Below, piece after piece: positions 10,791-40,113 of a stretch of DNA of 40,113 nt. Each line of letters begins with the position of its first letter. The first letter of the stretch is position 1. The notes below the pieces were generated by a model, which saw nothing but the letters and a program-made list of their open reading frames with translations, had not been told where the DNA came from and did no database searches. The position numbers and the translations under genes were made by a program. The stretch comes from an uncultured Elusimicrobia bacterium (GTDB lineage Bacteria; Elusimicrobiota; Elusimicrobia; Elusimicrobiales; UBA9959): contig CBDUMF010000001.1 of assembly GCA_965368225.1 (NCBI GenBank), positions 1-40,113 on the forward strand, written 5' to 3'.

Positions 10791-10980
10791 TTGCAAGACA
10801 CAGGTCACAAGGTGCAAGAGCGCAAGAGCGCAAGAACACAAGTAGTAAGTCGGAAGTCAGGAGTCGGAAGTCACAAGGCATAGGGCATAAGGCGTAAGTT
10901 GCAGGTTGCGGGTTGCAAGAGCTAAATAAACGCAATAAACTCAACTTCGGCAGTGTATCCCTGAACCTTGAACCTTGAAC
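10791..10980. repeat. mosaic of short tandem words (three 8-mers, eleven in-phase 7-mers, three 7-mers)
   Basis: Read directly: GYGCAAGA x3; AGTCGGA AGTCAGG AGTCGGA AGTCACA AGGCATA GGGCATA AGGCGTA AGTTGCA GGTTGCG GGTTGCA AGAGCTA (10848-10924); CCTGAAC CTTGAAC CTTGAAC (10960-10980). Confidence 0.85.
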
Positions 10981-18689: not shown

Positions 18690-19305
18690 GCAGGCGACGA
18701 AGTGACCGTACTTTTTTCCCCGACTTCCGCAGAAGCCCTAAAATTTAGGCCGCTCTCGACGAGAAAGACTTGAAATTTGGGTGTCCCAATGCAAAAGACG
18801 GGTTTCCATATCTTTGATTTGCTTAATATAGTCAATTATTTCAGTTTTTGCTCTACTACTATTCGCAGATTACGCTAAAACATCGCAAAAACCGCAAAAC
18901 CAAACTATTCGTAGATTACGCAAAACTGAACGCAAAAGCGCGGAAGAATAGAAGTTACAAAAGAAACCTCTGTCTTTTCTTAAATTTTTAATATTCATAA
19001 ATAATCTCCGCAATTGCCTTTTATCTAAAGTTGAGCATTATACATAGTATTCAAAAAATCAATCTCCAGGAACGTTCGCAAGAGCTAAAGCGCAAAACCA
19101 ATAATACTATAGAAAACACTAAATTTTGCGTCCTTTGCGTTTCAATGTTTTACCCTGTGTTCTCCGCGTGAATTTCACCCCGCAGGTTTCTCCGCCAAAA
19201 CCACATTGAACCCAACCTACGGGGTAAAATTCTCTTGCGCCCTCCGCGTTTCACTGTCTTTTGCGTCCTCTGCGCGAGGCTCCGGGCCTCGCACTACGAC
19301 CTCGT

Positions 19306-19459
19306 TCAATGAACATTATAAACGCTATAAACTCAATAAACGCTTAACGCTATAAACTCAATGAACGCTCAACGCTATAAACTCAATGAATGCTCAACGC
19401 TATAAACTCAATGAACGCTCAACGCTATAAACTCAATGAACGCTCAACGCTATAAACTC
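19306..19459. repeat. 25-bp tandem repeat, about 5.6 copies
   Basis: The unit AACGCTATAAACTCAATGAACGCTC starts at 19321, 19346, 19371, 19396, 19421 and 19446 (exact 25-bp phase). A degenerate partial copy precedes it. Confidence 0.9.
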
Positions 19460-19512
19460 TTCACTCCTCACTCTTTATCCTTCATCCCTTATCCCTTATC
19501 CCTTATCCTTAC
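19457..19512. repeat. heptanucleotide repeat tract (CTCCTCA / CTCTTTA / TCCCTTA words)
   Basis: CTCTTCA CTCCTCA CTCTTTA TCCTTCA TCCCTTA x3 TCCTTAC. Bases 19473-19494 are identical to 36662-36683. Confidence 0.9.
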
Positions 19513-19525
19513 CACTGTTTGCCTT

Positions 19526-19891
19526 TGCGACGGATAGTACCCCGGATTCTGTTTTATGGAATCATTTATCTGTCGCGGCCCACTTCGCGCCTTCGCTCAA
19601 AGCGAAAGGAAGGCACCTTTGACGCGCATTTGGCCTTGCTCCGGGCGGGGTTTGCCATGCCTTAAAAGATTACTCTTTTAAGCGGTGCGCTCTTACCGCA
19701 CCTTTTCACCCTTATCCGCCTGAGGCGGACGGTATATTTTCTGTTGCACTTTCCGTCTAAGCGGATATTGCCGCTTATCCCGGACTTATGCCCTTTCGCA
19801 AAAGCTCAAGGGTTTAATCCGGCGCCCTTGCCTTTGGAGTCCGGAAGTTCCTCCCCTGCCGAAAGGCGGAGGCGATTCCTCATCCGACGCA
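19526..19891 (-). ncRNA. rnpB: RNase P RNA, bacterial type A (boundaries +/- about 10 nt)
   Basis: The minus strand reads GGGGAGGAACUUCCGGACUCC, AAGGGUGAAAAGGUGCGGUAAGAGCGCACCGC, CCCGGAGCAAGGCCAAAU and ACAGAAUCCGGGG in the canonical order. The ends pair as P1 (UGCGUCGGAU / AUCCGUCGCA). Confidence 0.85.
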
Positions 19892-19925: not shown

Positions 19926-20195
19926 ATGCTCTGTCCAATAAATAGTTAATGGTTTGGAAAGCCAGATTTGAGGCAAGTTCAAGGCTCGGGCGCGCGCATA
20001 CCTGAAGGGGGCTGCATGCAAGGAGCAACGAAGAAATTGACCAAATATGGCTTTCCCTATAAGGGCAGGTTACTTTTGGGCTGCAACTTCGTCATTCATC
20101 GCTCACATACCACAACAGGTATGCTTACTCTTCATTCCTTGTTTCGCTCCAAAATTAACTCTGCCAAACTATCAAATATCTATTGGACAGAGCAT
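19926..20195. repeat. 270-bp element bounded by perfect 15-bp terminal inverted repeats (MITE-like or structured RNA locus)
   Basis: ATGCTCTGTCCAATA (19926-19940) and its exact reverse complement TATTGGACAGAGCAT (20181-20195). TAG sits on both outer flanks. There is an internal 15-bp imperfect inverted repeat (19956-19970 / 20042-20056). Confidence 0.5.
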
Positions 20196-34737: not shown

Positions 34738-36261
34738 TTATTTTTCTTTACCAATGACAAAATGGGTGCTTAAAGGCACGTTCGCTTTAAAATATTTGTA
34801 ACCCGCCTCAAGAACCCCTGCCTCCTTTGCCTCAACCTGTTTCCAGCCGGAAGCAGTAAGATAAAAAAGGAAAATTTTCCCTTCATTTGCTTGCCGCGCT
34901 TTAAACTCAAAACTCAATGCTCCGGAGGTCCGGACATTGCAGACAAACTGGAAAGCTTTCAATACATCATAACTGACGGGAAAATTTTTCAGGAGTTTTT
35001 CCGGAAGTTGTCCCTCTTTCATTAAAAGACTTACGGCGGCGGGTCCCCTCATTTCAGTCTTAAAAGATATCCCCCTTATATCCGACATACTTGAACGAGC
35101 TTCTATATTATAAAGAATTCCCCGCGCCGAAATTCTGACGGGTTTTGAATTAATTTCATACAGGAATGTCTTTGCATTTTCTATCTGCTCGCCGGCCATA
35201 ACCAGCCGCCCGGCGGGAACAATCCTCTTCCTGAACGGACGTCCGAATCTGAGCGAGAGCGAAATAATATGCGAATTCCCCAAGTCGCCATAAGGACTGA
35301 AGGCATAGTCAAAACTGAAATTTTTAAGCCTGAAACCCACGCCGCTCGCAATTCCGCTGACTGCTCCGAGTTCATTTCCATGCATCCTGTATTTATAGCC
35401 GGCTCTCAGCACAAGCTTGTCACCCAGAACCTGTTCGGTTCCGATTTTGAAAAACGGATAATTGTCTATTCTTTTTTCAATGTCGAAGGAAACGAGGGAA
35501 TTTTCCGAGAGTTTATGGCTCAGGCCCGCATTGAAAATAAGCGGCAAGTCATATCTTCTTGAAACGAACTTCACCCCCGGCCCAATGTTCAAAACCGAAA
35601 ACCCTCCTCTAAACTCCCTTCCAAACAAAATTAAATCTCTCATCACGCCAACGTCCAAAGCAAAAGTCGAGCCGCTTTCATTCTCTATGGACTGCCTTAT
35701 GAATTTTACCGCCGCTCCGCCATTCCACTCACCAGCGAACTTAAAGGCATAAGCGACCTTAAAAGCCAGGTCGTCGGCGCTGAACTTCCCTTCAGCCGAA
35801 GTCAGGGGATTCAAGGGGTCATCCTCGTTCAGACCGCTTCTTTTCTCCAGGTCTTTTGGAATAGACAAATAATTCAAACTAAAACCCGCTACCCCGTCTC
35901 TTAGAAAGGTGTTTTTAATATAGATCACTTTTTTGGCGTCAAGGCTGAAGGTAAGAAACTCCTGTTTCAAGCCCTGAAAATAATCGTTGTGAGAAAAACT
36001 TAAATCCCGGGTTCCTTTCAAAGAAAAAAGACCGGCAGGATTCCAGTAAATGGAATATGGGTCGCCGGCAACCGCAGTAAAAGCGCCCGCCATGGAAACG
36101 CTCCTTGCACCAACACCTATTTTCAAAAAAGAGGCAGAAGTACTGCCCGCAGAGGGATAAATCTTCGCCGCGTAAACGAAGGATAAAGGATAAAGGATAA
36201 AGGATAAAGGTAAAATAACGGCAGACAAAAAAGAAAAAAACAATTTCTTTGTATATTTAAT
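34738..36261 (-). CDS. PorV/PorQ-like outer-membrane beta-barrel protein (C-terminal 507 codons of the single ORF 34738..36612)
   Basis: Signal-peptide-like KYTKKLFFSFLSAVILPLSFILYPLSFVYA|AK, then FLKIGVGARSVSMAGAFTAVAGDPYSIYWNPAGL, the hallmark N-terminal motif of PorV-type barrels, then alternating beta-strand pattern. No ATG at the signal peptide; the codon at the junction is ATT. Confidence 0.65.
   Translation of the reverse strand: MKYTKKLFFSFLSAVILPLSFILYPLSFVYAAKIYPSAGSTSASFLKIGVGARSVSMAGAFTAVAGDPYSIYWNPAGLFSLKGTRDLSFSHNDYFQGLKQEFLTFSLDAKKVIYIKNTFLRDGVAGFSLNYLSIPKDLEKRSGLNEDDPLNPLTSAEGKFSADDLAFKVAYAFKFAGEWNGGAAVKFIRQSIENESGSTFALDVGVMRDLILFGREFRGGFSVLNIGPGVKFVSRRYDLPLIFNAGLSHKLSENSLVSFDIEKRIDNYPFFKIGTEQVLGDKLVLRAGYKYRMHGNELGAVSGIASGVGFRLKNFSFDYAFSPYGDLGNSHIISLSLRFGRPFRKRIVPAGRLVMAGEQIENAKTFLYEINSKPVRISARGILYNIEARSSMSDIRGISFKTEMRGPAAVSLLMKEGQLPEKLLKNFPVSYDVLKAFQFVCNVRTSGALSFEFKARQANEGKIFLFYLTASGWKQVEAKEAGVLEAGYKYFKANVPLSTHFVIGKEK
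36181..36213. repeat. (GGATAAA)x4.5 heptad tract inside the PorV-like signal-peptide coding region
   Basis: Read directly. On the minus strand, CCTTTAT x4 encodes PLSFILYPLSF. Confidence 0.9.
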
Positions 36262-36612
36262 ATTCTTTGAACGAAGTTTTTTTACAATAGATGTTAATAT
36301 GGCGGTTAATTCATCCGATTCGGAGTATAAGGATTTTAATTTTTCACAATTCCCGATTTTGAGAGCGAGAAAAACTTTCAGCCAATACCTCGTTTCCCGC
36401 GCTTCCTTTTTAGATATATTCGCGCTATGAATAAAATCGGCATCCGTCAATCCTCCCGAAGCTTCTTCCCAATTCGCTCCCATGGACATGGAAGAATTCA
36501 ACAACTGCCTATACATTTCAATATAAATTCTATTGTATGGCAAGGAGTTTATAAACTTCGCCACGCTTACCGCAAATTCAAATATTCTCTCTCCCAGTTT
36601 TTTCTCTTTCAT
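36262..36612 (-). CDS. four-helix-bundle protein module (23S rRNA intervening-sequence protein / Avd family), with no stop codon before the PorV-like part
   Basis: The order of motifs (QLLNSSMSMGANWEEA, DFIHSANISKKEARETRYWL, ELTAILTSIVKKL) and the about 117-aa length match that family. GGGAG lies 7 nt before the ATG. Confidence 0.85.
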
Positions 36613-36687
36613 CCCTTCTCCCTTATCTTCATTCCTTATCCTTTCTCCTTTCTCCCTTATCCTTTATCCTTCATCCCTTATCCTTAT
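36613..36687. repeat. heptad tract (TCCCTTA / TCCTTTC / TCCTTCA words) filling the whole spacer between the cargo-gene stop and the four-helix-bundle ATG
   Basis: Read directly. It is complementary in word type to 36181-36213, and bases 36662-36683 equal 19473-19494. Confidence 0.9.
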
Positions 36688-39600
36688 TTAATGTATTATC
36701 GCCAGTTTTTTCACTATTTTCTTGCTCCCGGAAGGCGAACGAGCCTCCACCTTGTAAATATAAACCCCCGAAGCATAGTTCGTTATTTTCCACTTTATTT
36801 CAGAAACTATTCCGGCTGGGCAATTGGGTTTTTCAAGGCGCGCTACCTTTTCGCCGGCGACATTGTAAACATCTATCGTGACATATGATTTATCCGCCAC
36901 GTAAAACTTGAAAGTCAGTTCGTCCCCCCGGGCCGGGTTGGGATAAGTGTAAACCTTGTCGTAAACCAGCAGTTCCCCCGAAGGTATATATTCCATAATC
37001 CTGAAGTATGAAAAATGCGTGGTAATCGCCTTAACCTTTTTCTCGGAGAACAAGACCTCGCTGTTATTGAACATCATCCATCTTCCTTCAAAATACGTGT
37101 ACATTCTTAAATTTTCTTCATCCATTCCACTAATCTCTTCTTTTGTGTAGGGCAGTTTTACTGTCGCTTTTCCTATCAGTTTTGTAGCGGGATTTTCAAA
37201 TTTTATCTCGTAGATTATGCCAGTAGGATTGGCCCCTGCGGATTTAACCTTAAGCATGGACGGGCTGAAGGCGCTTGTATCAATCTTTGTAATAAGTATA
37301 TTATCGTTCTGGCTGACTCCATTCGGGGGTACGTTCACCTCGGCCCCATCTTTAAGTCTTATGGCGCCTCCATTGGCAGCGTCGAGAAAACGCCAATTAT
37401 CCGCTGAAATCCCGAATGCCTCATTTGACATAGGGGAATCATTGCTGCTGTCGAAAGCCGCCACCCTGTAATAGTACTTCACATTCACATTGGCGGAAGG
37501 ATCTATGTATTTTGAAACGCCGGCCGAAACCGAATCATAGGGAGCACTGGAAACATAAGCAGTCATCTTCAATCTTCTGTATATTTTGTATCCATAAACG
37601 TCATTTTCACCCGTTCCGTCATCCGGCGACAAACTCCAGGTTAACGTCAGACTCCCGCCGTGGTCGCCCTGAGTATCTTCCACCTGAAGATTGGAAGGGG
37701 GAGCCGGAGCGGTGGAATCAAACGTCGCCCACTGCGAGGGAATATTTGAAACTGCGCTTTCATTCCCGTTAGAATCCCTCGTTTTGATAGCAAAATAATA
37801 TGTGACACCTCCAAAAAGTCCGTCTATCTTTTCACTTTCTTCAAACCCTGCCTCCCCACCACAGACTCTTGAAGATTTAAACACATCCATTAAATCGAAA
37901 TCCGTCGAAAAAGAGGAATATTTTATCGCGTAATAAGCCGCCGTGCCCACATCCCCATCGTCTCCGGGAGCAGTCCACGACAACTCCACTTCTCCACCTT
38001 TTTTGCCCCTGATAACCGCCAAATCGCTTATCGCCGAGGGCATGGTATTATCGCTTGAAGGGTCATTATCTATGGAATAAGCAGTAGATTCATTCGAATT
38101 TACGCTTTCCACATAATTATCAAACGTCCTGAGAATATAAGTGAAAGTTGTACCTGTAATTGCAGTTGAATCGATATATGAAAGTGTTGAAGAGCTAACA
38201 GAAGTCAAATAAGAAAAATCGCCGCTTTCTTTTTTTCTATATATACGATAAGAAGTATAGTAGGGGGATGTGGAAGCCTCCCAGGAAAGACTTATTTTAT
38301 TCCCGCTGTCTGAGGGCACATCAGACGCGGTTAGATTCGAAGGCGGGGCCGGCGGATGATTTACTCTCACTGTCAAACGCGCTGTATTGTCGGAAGTATG
38401 AGCAACACTTTCATTCACCGTCAACCTAATTGTGTAAACCCCATTTGAAACCCCGCTTGTGTCCCATATTCCCAAAATCCCATTCTTAATTTCAGAAGAG
38501 GTATTACTTGAAATTATGGTAGACCACGAACCTGGATTCTCACCCTCTCCGTATTCAAGAAGATATCCCGAAAGATTCGGATTTCTCACATAGCCTTTTA
38601 TCTCAACGTTCTCATCGACAACCTCATAAGAATACGGGCTGGAAATGGAAACCACCTTCTTTGCCTCATATGCTATCAGTCGTCCGCCATTTCTTCCTAT
38701 AAAGACCATGCCATTGGATATAGCCGGAGATGAGTAGCACGATGTGGAAAGATTTATATCTCCCATTACAGAAGCTCCGCTTGAACTAACCGCCACCAGT
38801 CTGCCGTCAGGAGTGCCAACATATATCACTTCGTTCGCCATTGAAGGGGAAGACAAAAATCCCACCATGGCGGTATTTCCCAAAGTCGGGGAGCTTGCCC
38901 AAACAGACGACAACGAATCTCTCTTATAGGCATATAAAGTCAGAGGCGAAGACCCCATACCAAAATATATGTTTTTGTCAGTTATAACGGGAGATGTCAC
39001 CTCAGCCTCTCCGCTTATATTTATAGCATCCGAAACAATTATCTGATTACCGTCCTCCGCTTTGAAAATAAAAAGACTCTTTTCATCGTGTCCCGGCAGA
39101 GCATAAACACTGCCAGAACTGACGGAAACAGCGTTTATGCCAAAACTTCCTTTCGTTTGCTGAGTCCCTGAAGGAATCCAATCAAAAACGCCTGTATTCC
39201 TGTCCAGGGCATAAATCCTTCCATCGTTCGCCCCAAAGTAAATTTTATTGCCGTCGCTTGAGGGAGCGCCGTCAAGCGGCTGATCTATCTTATACTCCCA
39301 TAACACCTGCCCGCTGGACGCGTTCAAAGCGATGATTTTATTAGCCGGCATCCCCATTCCGACATAAACCGCTCCTTCAAAATAAAGTGGCGAGGAAACG
39401 GAAGGAGCGCCCAAATTTTTCTGCCACAAAATATTGCCGGTGTTCCTGTCCAGGGCGTAGAGATTTCCGTCCCTTGAAGGCACAAAAACGGCCGCGCTTG
39501 AAACCGCCGGAGTTGCATCCACCCAGTCATCCGTGGAATAATCCCAGATAAGCTCTCCCGTTTCAGCATTAATGGCATACACGCTTCCCGAACGAGCACC

Positions 39601-39946: not shown

Positions 39947-39981
39947 CTGACTCCTGACTCTCGACTCCTGACTTCCGACTT
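39947..39981. repeat. heptad tract CTGACTC CTGACTC TCGACTC CTGACTT CCGACTT
   Basis: Read directly. Bases 39962-39980 are the exact reverse complement of 10848-10866. Confidence 0.9.
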
Positions 39982-40035
39982 TGATTTATAGGCAGAGCTG
40001 CGCTCTGCAGCTACATTTCTGTTTTTTTCTCCTCA

Positions 40036-40113
40036 CTCCTCACTTTTCACTCTTTACTTTTCACTCCTCGCTTATTAGCGAGGAGTGAAAAGTAAAGAGT
40101 GAAAAGTGAGGAG
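40036..40113. repeat. perfect 37-bp inverted repeat with a 4-nt loop, built from heptad words and truncated by the window end
   Basis: CTCCTCACTTTTCACTCTTTACTTTTCACTCCTCGCT-tatt-AGCGAGGAGTGAAAAGTAAAGAGTGAAAAGTGAGGAG. Confidence 0.9.

Follow-up and report, generated by a model that had tools for sequence, protein, structure and literature searches.

Organization of the cargo-porV locus

The window analysed here is the complete 40,113-nucleotide stretch of contig CBDUMF010000001.1 from an uncultured Elusimicrobia bacterium. On its minus strand, a region coding for a four-helix-bundle (4HB) protein is located between two inverted tracts of heptanucleotide repeats, hereafter called the 5' and 3' arms according to their order on the transcript. 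It is preceded by the gene of a type IX secretion system (T9SS) cargo protein and followed by a PorV-like gene (Table 1). A preliminary description of this DNA had assigned the three proteins to these families, and the profile searches bore this out. The 4HB domain scored 77.7 bits against TIGR02436 (cut-off 24, residues 8-114) and 55.4 bits against PF05635 (cut-off 33.8, E 7.8e-15, residues 8-107), and a sequence match to PDB entry 2RLD (E 1.6e-15, residues 1-114) suggests its fold. The cargo protein showed PQQ-type beta-propellers (PQQ_2, E 5e-44) and a C-terminal T9SS sorting domain (TIGR04183, 37.9 bits for a cut-off of 23, residues 979-1058; Por_Secre_tail, E 1.7e-9). The PorV-like protein scored 158 bits against the subfamily model PorV_fam NF033709 (cut-off 90) and stayed below the equivalog cut-offs of PorV (64 versus 250) and PorQ (87 versus 220), so that it is a member of the PorV/PorQ family and not demonstrably PorV itself. 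Orthologues, mostly 490-560 aa long, share 41-55% identity with it.

Table 1. Position of the features discussed, in the order of the minus-strand transcript; the RNase P RNA gene is listed last.
Feature	Position	Strand	Remarks
Cargo gene, 1063 aa	36688..39879	-	Stop codon 36688-36690 abuts the 5' arm
5' arm	36613..36687	-	Purine-rich on the transcript, approximately 11 heptads (GGAUAAG, GGGAUGA, GGAUAAA, GGAGAAA and similar)
4HB domain (TIGR02436 / PF05635), codons 1-117	36262..36612	-	ATG 36610-36612; no terminal stop codon
Junction: 4HB tail and positively charged signal-peptide n-region (..IKYTKKLFFSFLSAV)	36215..36261	-	
3' arm	36179..36214	-	(UUUAUCC)x5 on the transcript, read as ILPLSFILYPLSF
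Mature PorV/PorQ-family outer-membrane protein and C-terminal extension	34738..36168	-	Continuation of the 4HB open reading frame
RNase P RNA, bacterial	19522-19891	-	216 bits

The 4HB and PorV-like regions form a single open reading frame (ORF) of 624 aa, from 36612 down to 34738 on the minus strand. The same ORF was called independently on a near-identical 42-kb metagenome contig, L001 (ENA ERZ27227320 k141_362788). The 4HB gene had been taken for a separate ORF ending at 36262, and this proved wrong, the TAA at that place being out of frame. As there is no in-frame stop at 36262, the 3' arm is coding sequence and not the non-coding flank that had been described. It corresponds to codons 133-145 (ILPLSFILYPLSF) and constitutes the h-region, or hydrophobic core, in the signal peptide of the PorV-like protein. 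The mature N-terminus was placed at AKIYPSAGSTSA by an alignment of approximately 120 orthologues, mostly labelled Elusimicrobia, and the predicted signal-peptidase site (between VYA and AK, at 36168/36169) lies just after the arm. The 5' arm fills the entire 75-nt spacer from the cargo stop codon to the 4HB ATG, contains stops in all three frames and provides a Shine-Dalgarno-like GGGAG/AAGGG immediately before the AUG, at a spacing of 5 nt for GGGAG and not 7 nt as stated earlier. The 3' arm of the window has no stop in any of the three frames. The element is not the self-contained cassette that had been imagined, as its ORF, devoid of a stop, runs into porV and its 3' arm consists of signal-peptide codons.

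The window and L001 differed at just three positions over 13.4 kb (36249, 36264 and 36275). All three lie within 27 nt at the 4HB/signal-peptide junction, the first two in or bordering the junction segment of Table 1, and all of them alter the protein (K122E, N117Y and L113H, respectively). No clear compensatory effect of these substitutions was visible in the RNA fold. The lengths of the heptad tracts were identical in the two assemblies, which are independent.

Complementarity of the two arms

Tandem Repeats Finder reported two arrays of period 7, one at 36179-36214 (5.3 copies, 96% matches, unit AAGGATA) and one at 36611-36687 (11.3 copies, 75% matches, unit ATCCCTT), in agreement with the tract coordinates noted previously. 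The first is a perfect (TTTATCC)x5 on the minus strand. The two arrays are mutually reverse-complementary over 37 nt at 86% and over 33 nt at 91%, and they are the sole heptad-type inverted pair found in a scan of the 40-kb window.

The stem that had been proposed around the ORF was predicted well above chance. The arm-arm duplex reached -69.2 kcal/mol, compared to -46.2±4.3 for dinucleotide shuffles (z -5.4), and none of 600 shuffles was as low. When region 36150-36700 was folded as a whole, the arms were paired in both the minimum free energy and the centroid structures (z -2.8). In these predictions the arms are able to form an imperfect duplex of approximately 70 nt, whose outer helix has 24 consecutive pairs. 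Both the Shine-Dalgarno sequence and the 4HB start codon are hidden within the long-range stem, of approximately -62 kcal/mol, and a U-rich segment (36228-36239) pairs with the first 4HB codons (36598-36609).

The same layout at other PorV-like loci

Approximately 170 PorV-like loci were retrieved and the 4HB domain was located by profile. Only four contained it, invariably in the position immediately preceding the PorV-like gene; a fifth case, L199, was added later. The layout of the window recurred in eight further PorV-like loci, four with and four without the 4HB domain, each with its own 7-nt unit and with complementary arms. Among the loci containing the domain, the 4HB frame has no stop in the window (arms GGATAAA / TTTATCC), L002 (GGGATAA / TTATCCC), L003 (GTATGAA / TTCATAC) and L199 (AGGGATR / TYATCCC), and has its own stop, overlapping the next ATG, in L043 (GGTGAAT / ATTCACC). 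The loci possessing arms and no 4HB are L004 (GGCTAAA / TTTAGCC), L084 (GGCTGAA / TTCAGCC), L166 (GGGATGA / TCATCCC) and L013 (GTAGACA / TGTCTAC). There, the predicted hairpins (-55 to -86 kcal/mol) enclose the Shine-Dalgarno sequence, the AUG and the n-region. In L003, no ATG, GTG or TTG was found between the 4HB domain and the signal peptide, so that PorV would be made only from the 4HB start.

An ungapped pairing score was computed between the upstream region and the signal-peptide region of each locus, using 400 random non-cognate pairs as a control. The cognate arm pairs scored 18-43, against a median of 10.8 over 165 loci; no non-cognate pair exceeded 15.7, and the 99th percentile of these controls was 14.4. 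The unit differs between lineages while the arms remain complementary, a pattern of compensatory change that affects the repeats as wholes.

The closest comparison was provided by L002 and its relatives L164 and L169, whose mature PorV proteins are 87% and 80% identical, respectively, to that of L002. Their DNA is approximately 90% identical up to the cargo stop codon and again from the signal-peptidase site on. Between these two points, L002 contains 535 nt of arms and 4HB, and L164 and L169 contain 175 nt of ordinary spacer and signal peptide. The search for an orthologous empty site nevertheless gave no clean answer: L164 and L169 lack both arms and 4HB, but four loci possess arms only, and the existence of arms without the 4HB ORF at the same junction makes such a test ambiguous for this locus.

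Three lineages, with proteins approximately 50% diverged, have retained the 4HB-PorV fusion, and a fusion of 4HB to a barrel was seen in four additional protein clusters. The three 4HB-bearing PorV genes did not form one clade in a neighbour-joining tree, which was weak, and their 4HB domains are at least as distant from each other as from standalone homologues. The tree is too weak to separate one old insertion followed by losses from several gains.

Two other loci deserve mention. L167 (protein P0003, approximately 630-660) and L165 have no 4HB domain and no matching 5' arm, and their signal peptide is encoded by heptads (TATTCTC x4, read as FSILYSLFS). These may be half-decayed arms.

Inverted arms across the TIGR02436 family

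The nearest standalone 4HB homologues (L170 and L174, 46-47% identical) have unrelated neighbours, with an acylphosphatase gene downstream in one case. Both are surrounded by inverted arrays of an AAGGATR-type unit, as in the arms of the window. We sampled 21 further family loci, including plasmids, one viral contig and a Nostoc plasmid segment. They came from Cyanobacteria (Nostoc, Anabaena, Planktothrix, Dolichospermum, Gloeocapsa, Euhalothece, Aulosira and Pseudanabaena), Bacteroidota (Bernardetia and Chondrinema), Spirochaetota (Treponema), Chloroflexota (Chlorohelix) and Bacillota (Monoglobus). Inverted tandem-repeat arms beating every shuffle were present at 19 of these 21 loci, and 17 loci scored at least 19. 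Each locus had its own arm unit, for example TAATTCG, AATCGTA, AAGTCGG, GGGTGTA, GATTAGT or ACCAGTG, and one unit was an 8-mer. The question whether other 4HB copies are flanked by inverted arms was thus answered positively for most loci of this sample. Specificity was gauged on a 50-kb segment of plasmid pNPUN01 from N. punctiforme PCC 73102, containing 35 genes: heptad-type inverted pairs occurred there around the two annotated 4HB genes (cassettes at 159762-160184 and 162595-163050) and nowhere else. When approximately 1 Mb of retrieved loci was scanned for strict heptad arrays, the criterion proved over-stringent and the arms of the window themselves were missed.

The two arms differ in their reading frames. 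Of 18 cassettes, 12 had a 5' arm with stops in every one of the three frames and none had a 5' arm that was fully open; the 3' arm was fully open in nine of the 18 (Wilcoxon p 0.004 for the asymmetry). A profile search among 1.84 billion cluster representatives returned 19,005 relatives at E <= 1e-3. The best 150 of them included four long proteins with an N-terminal 4HB domain, all of one build: the 4HB domain is followed by a signal peptide of 7-residue periodicity, and this by a PorV/FadL-type barrel. One of the four is L199, whose DNA has AGGGATR/TYATCCC arms like those of the window. The family appeared to be rare in phages, as a scan of viral contigs gave one locus and a phage collection two records.

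Several cassettes are located inside defence or transport operons (L176, L177, L186, L198, L180, L195, L178, L181, L182, L188 and L196), the 4HB gene lying in the gaps between cas2 and cas1, cas6 and cas4, RND adaptor and permease, hsdS and hsdR, helicase and methylase, or DUF1156 and HEPN, and also upstream of cas1. The presence of the family in cas loci was noted earlier (PMC3936711). The 4HB gene of Monoglobus (L195) is missing from the annotation. In P0137 (268 aa), a PIN domain is joined to 4HB by read-through of the arm, and the N-terminus of P0181 is a 7-residue periodic peptide (EVLSLKS repeats) corresponding to the translated 5' arm. Both extensions are likely annotation artefacts of open repeat frames.

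An insertion event in Nostoc flagelliforme

In N. flagelliforme CCNUN1, a cassette interrupts a helix-turn-helix gene (L192 compared with L193 and L194), of which uninterrupted versions exist elsewhere in CCNUN1 (94.7% identical) and in Nostoc ATCC 53789. The insert measures 524 bp and is bordered by an 11-bp direct duplication of the target. The occupied site reads ..GTT[TGGAGTTGGGT]CAACCCCTTCGGGT-(AATTCAA)4-4HB-(TTTTGAA)4-TTGTTA[TGGAGTTGGGT]AAAAAAGG.. and the empty site ..GTT TGGAGTTGGGT AAAAAAGG... The three copies present in N. flagelliforme were considered as a possible case of cassette-only movement and rejected, all of them lying within a larger duplicated segment; the evidence of movement is the intact paralogue, not these copies. 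At 15 other cassettes, a search for target duplications by longest common substring gave nothing above chance except extra repeat arrays. Mobility, which had been raised as a possibility for the element of the window, is supported by these sequence comparisons for the family and not for the window copy itself.

Comparison with known systems

The closest parallel is the ORF-bearing intervening sequence (IVS) of 23S rRNA genes, as in Leptospira and Coxiella burnetii. The IVS of C. burnetii, 428 nt long, contains the S23p ORF of the 4HB family within a 28-bp inverted-repeat stem cut by RNase III; in its 5' region, GACAGAT is reported to be repeated in tandem two or three times after a Shine-Dalgarno sequence, with the RNase III site at the first repeat (PMC4990558). 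Excision by RNase III has been shown for this IVS and for others. The likeness extends to the protein family enclosed in a terminal inverted-repeat stem, to the size (approximately 430-520 nt), to the tandem heptads beside the ribosome-binding site and start codon (GACAGAT in Coxiella), and to the status of both elements, regarded as selfish and horizontally acquired. Unlike the 23S IVS, which resides in helix 9, 25 or 45 of its gene, the copy of the window lies outside rRNA, between two protein genes of one operon; RNase P RNA was the only Rfam hit in the window. Its ORF, from which the stop was lost or always missing, continues into the next gene, the 3' arm codes for protein, and excision would damage the messenger instead of leaving a functional fragmented rRNA.

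The arms also resemble the cyanobacterial short tandemly repeated repetitive (STRR) sequences and other intergenic heptads (Nostoc TTTTGAA/TTCAAAA, Beggiatoaceae TAACTGA), which are tandem 7-nt units just 5' of start codons; the cassettes of N. flagelliforme and Aulosira have TTTTGAA as their arm unit. In two studies (bioRxiv 10.1101/2022.06.06.494920; PMC4679880), such heptads are suspected of post-transcriptional roles and, unlike the cassette arms, are treated as direct repeats, and a term search of both texts gave no mention of a 4HB gene or of paired inverted arrays around a gene. Miniature inverted-repeat transposable elements (MITEs) and other small non-autonomous elements share with the cassette the terminal inverted repeats, the target duplication, the insertion in genes or operons and the absence of their own transposase. 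They differ from it in that the cassette ends are short tandem-unit arrays, specific to each copy and devoid of a conserved terminal sequence, and in that the cassette carries a conserved, apparently expressed ORF.

In the opa genes of Neisseria, a simple-sequence contingency locus, CTCTT repeats are located in the signal-peptide coding region. As in opa and in Haemophilus HMW, the window shows a repeat of non-multiple-of-three length at the 5' end of an outer-membrane protein gene; unlike them, it shows no length variation between the two assemblies, and a complementary array is located 430 nt upstream of the repeat, with an ORF enclosed. A link of the HMW heptanucleotide repeat to RNase III has been reported (PMC12721329). 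The Avd protein of diversity-generating retroelements (DGRs) belongs to a homologous four-helix-bundle fold family (PMC10053308). Unlike avd, the 4HB gene has neither an adjacent reverse transcriptase nor visible template/variable repeats: no reverse-transcriptase Pfam domain was found in the called genes up to 10 kb downstream of the cargo gene or in the one upstream gene, and no DGR template/variable repeat pair was seen beside the 4HB gene. The literature searched, whose coverage was incomplete, contained no description of a general heptad-armed 4HB arrangement, and an earlier one is possible.

Proposed model and alternative explanations

The comparisons support the view that a TIGR02436 4HB ORF between inverted tandem arrays of approximately 7-nt units constitutes a widespread small insertion cassette with the layout of the ORF-bearing 23S IVS. 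The idea of an IVS-like unit of stem and 4HB ORF residing in a messenger is retained, on the strength of the 19 armed loci out of 21, of the co-varying arms, of the N. flagelliforme insertion and of the heptads reported in the Coxiella IVS; its self-contained character had to be abandoned. Taken as a whole, the probable explanation of the locus is an IVS-type insertion cassette outside rRNA, here built into porV and presumably functioning as follows.

In this model, the arm duplex would be a substrate of RNase III, as in the Coxiella IVS, and its cleavage would remove the 4HB segment and part the cargo and porV messages. Ribosomes ending at the cargo stop codon, or loading before the 3' arm is transcribed, would open the stem. 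Translation would then start at the 4HB AUG and continue across the signal peptide into PorV, and PorV synthesis would be coupled to that of the cargo. The fusion protein would be inserted with its 4HB domain in the cytoplasm and signal peptidase would free the mature PorV. The 5' arm, with its stops, would end incoming translation just before the 4HB start, allowing coupling or re-initiation from any host frame, and the 3' arm could be read through, consistent with the observed fusions. The arms would be kept as tandem repeats because units pairing in any register tolerate slippage; slippage together with template switching or gene conversion might homogenise both arms. The arm-only loci would be deletion derivatives.

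Several points weigh against this explanation. The formation of the stem and its cleavage in vivo are assumptions, and a cut in the stem would separate PorV from its only start codon, so that processing and PorV expression would compete. Arms without 4HB at the same junction are equally consistent with a host hairpin older than the ORF. Among the sampled family members, L174 and L180 are weak, and at L186 the gene adjoins large direct arrays, the inverted partner being further out. Generality is based on approximately 30 loci chosen by similarity, which is not a census. Finally, neither a target duplication nor a clean empty site was found at the window locus, and no enzyme of movement (transposase, integrase or reverse transcriptase) is present in the cassette, whose only ORF is 4HB.

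The most serious alternative, though an unlikely one, is that the stem belongs to the host. A translational-control hairpin at the cargo-porV junction would mask the porV ribosome-binding site until the cargo is translated, and the 4HB domain would be a passenger of the loop. This view was favoured at first, from L004 and L084, and it accounts for the four orthologous or paralogous junctions where both arms enclose the initiation region in the absence of 4HB; a weak complementarity is also visible in the high-GC orthologues L006 and L010. It was demoted because the nearest standalone 4HB genes, beside unrelated genes, have arms of the AAGGATR unit family and because 19 of 21 other family members are armed. 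A host hairpin also fits poorly with the distribution of arms, present at all 4HB-bearing PorV loci versus approximately 4 of approximately 160 loci without 4HB, and with the close relatives L164 and L169, which lack arms and 4HB together.

Phase variation, in which gain or loss of a 7-nt unit in the signal-peptide region would shift the frame and switch PorV, appears distinctly improbable as the explanation, and it could add to the cassette model instead of replacing it. The repeat unit is not a multiple of three and lies inside the ORF at the signal peptide, and heptad copy number varies among Coxiella strains (PMC4990558). In Haemophilus, heptanucleotide repeats and an RNase III-targeted 5' UTR (untranslated region) element are reported to drive phase variation (PMC12721329). 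The tract of the window is, however, short (just approximately five units) and has the same length in two independent assemblies, and, with a 3' arm devoid of stops in any frame, translation would not be halted inside the tract by a shift.

It is very doubtful that the arms are recombination sites flipping the 430-bp segment. The length of the inverted repeats (33-37 nt, 86-91% complementary) would suit such a DNA inversion switch, and in two cas loci the 4HB gene is on the strand opposite to its neighbours. Against it, there is no recombinase nearby among the called neighbour genes, the five PorV/FadL-linked copies out of five with DNA examined are oriented as porV, and the retrieved contigs contain no inverted variant. 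A chance arrangement in a heptad-littered genome (the window has other heptad tracts at 10806-10980, 19456-19508 and 39947-40073), or a DGR accessory protein Avd, which PF05635 resembles (PMC10053308), is hardly tenable and already contradicted by the pairing scores, the 21-locus sample and the Nostoc control. None of the other tracts of the window has an inverted partner, the arrangement is repeated with co-varying units in many genomes and no reverse transcriptase adjoins the 4HB gene.

The insertion-cassette explanation can be extended to a single picture, speculative and on the whole rather unlikely, in which the TIGR02436 genes (at least 19,000 clusters at 50% identity) would be the cargo of an unrecognised class of mobile cassettes. 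From any host transcript, the arms would yield an RNA excised by RNase III. This RNA, perhaps bound by its own Avd-like protein, would be inserted through template switching or else recopied to DNA, with a reverse transcriptase of the host performing the copying. The rRNA IVS, the cyanobacterial STRR heptads and the Elusimicrobia heptad tracts would be sites or footprints of such events, and the 3' arm would have been repeatedly co-opted as a signal peptide for PorV/FadL-type proteins.

Neighbouring genes and other repeats of the window

Besides the cargo and PorV-like genes, the neighbours code for an NTP_transf_5 protein and an ABC transporter. On the longer contig L001, an ORF of 6145 residues (L001 1-9722) is located directly upstream of the cargo gene. 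Also upstream of this gene, region 39947-40073 of the window contains heptad tracts (CTGACTC and CTCCTCA), and L001 shows CTCCCGA x5 beyond the window end. A perfect 37-nt palindrome occupies 40036-40113, at the very end of the window; L001 continues differently from 40084 on, which marks the palindrome as an assembly-end artefact.

Other tandem repeats were observed at two places. Within one intergenic region (10806-10980), five or six short arrays follow each other in series (GCAAGAGC, AAGTCGG, AAGGCAT, GTTGCAG and TGAACCT). Beside the RNase P RNA gene (19321-19508), a 25-nt tandem repeat (x5.6) is followed by a heptad tract, CTTCATCCCTTATCCCTTATCCC, with the unit of the cassette arms. No inverted partner was found for the arrays of either region. 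The RNase P RNA region and the other heptad tracts were considered as general processing stalks and rejected, as they have no inverted partners in the window. Near the RNase P RNA gene, 206 nt are enclosed by a MITE-like 32-nt inverted repeat (19926-19957 / 20164-20195, 88% complementary). Further repeats, of a short hairpin motif (GCGAGGC..GGGCCTCGCACTACG), were seen at 19240-19290 and may represent a dispersed repeat family.

Significance

Intervening sequences of rRNA were discovered more than three decades ago and, to our knowledge, neither the function of their ORF nor their way of spreading has been established. Among the unexplained small genes of cyanobacteria, Bacteroidota and numerous uncultured phyla, "four helix bundle protein" is one of the more frequent annotations. 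What differs from the known IVS is the location in a messenger, the fusion of the ORF to the next gene and the coding character of one arm. If 4HB genes are generally heptad-armed and insertable, the IVS would be the rRNA-resident subset of a far larger family, which would offer a route to study its movement, and the heptanucleotide STRR repeats would, on the same premise, gain a candidate origin. The combination of a 5' arm with stops in three frames and an open 3' arm would then suggest a compact design, expressible from any host transcript and in any frame, which may be of use in engineering. Annotation pipelines need a rule for "PorV" proteins of approximately 620 aa with an N-terminal 4HB domain and for ORFs extended through repeat arms. 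The repeated fusion to PorV/FadL-type barrels is a rare instance of repeat DNA providing a signal peptide.

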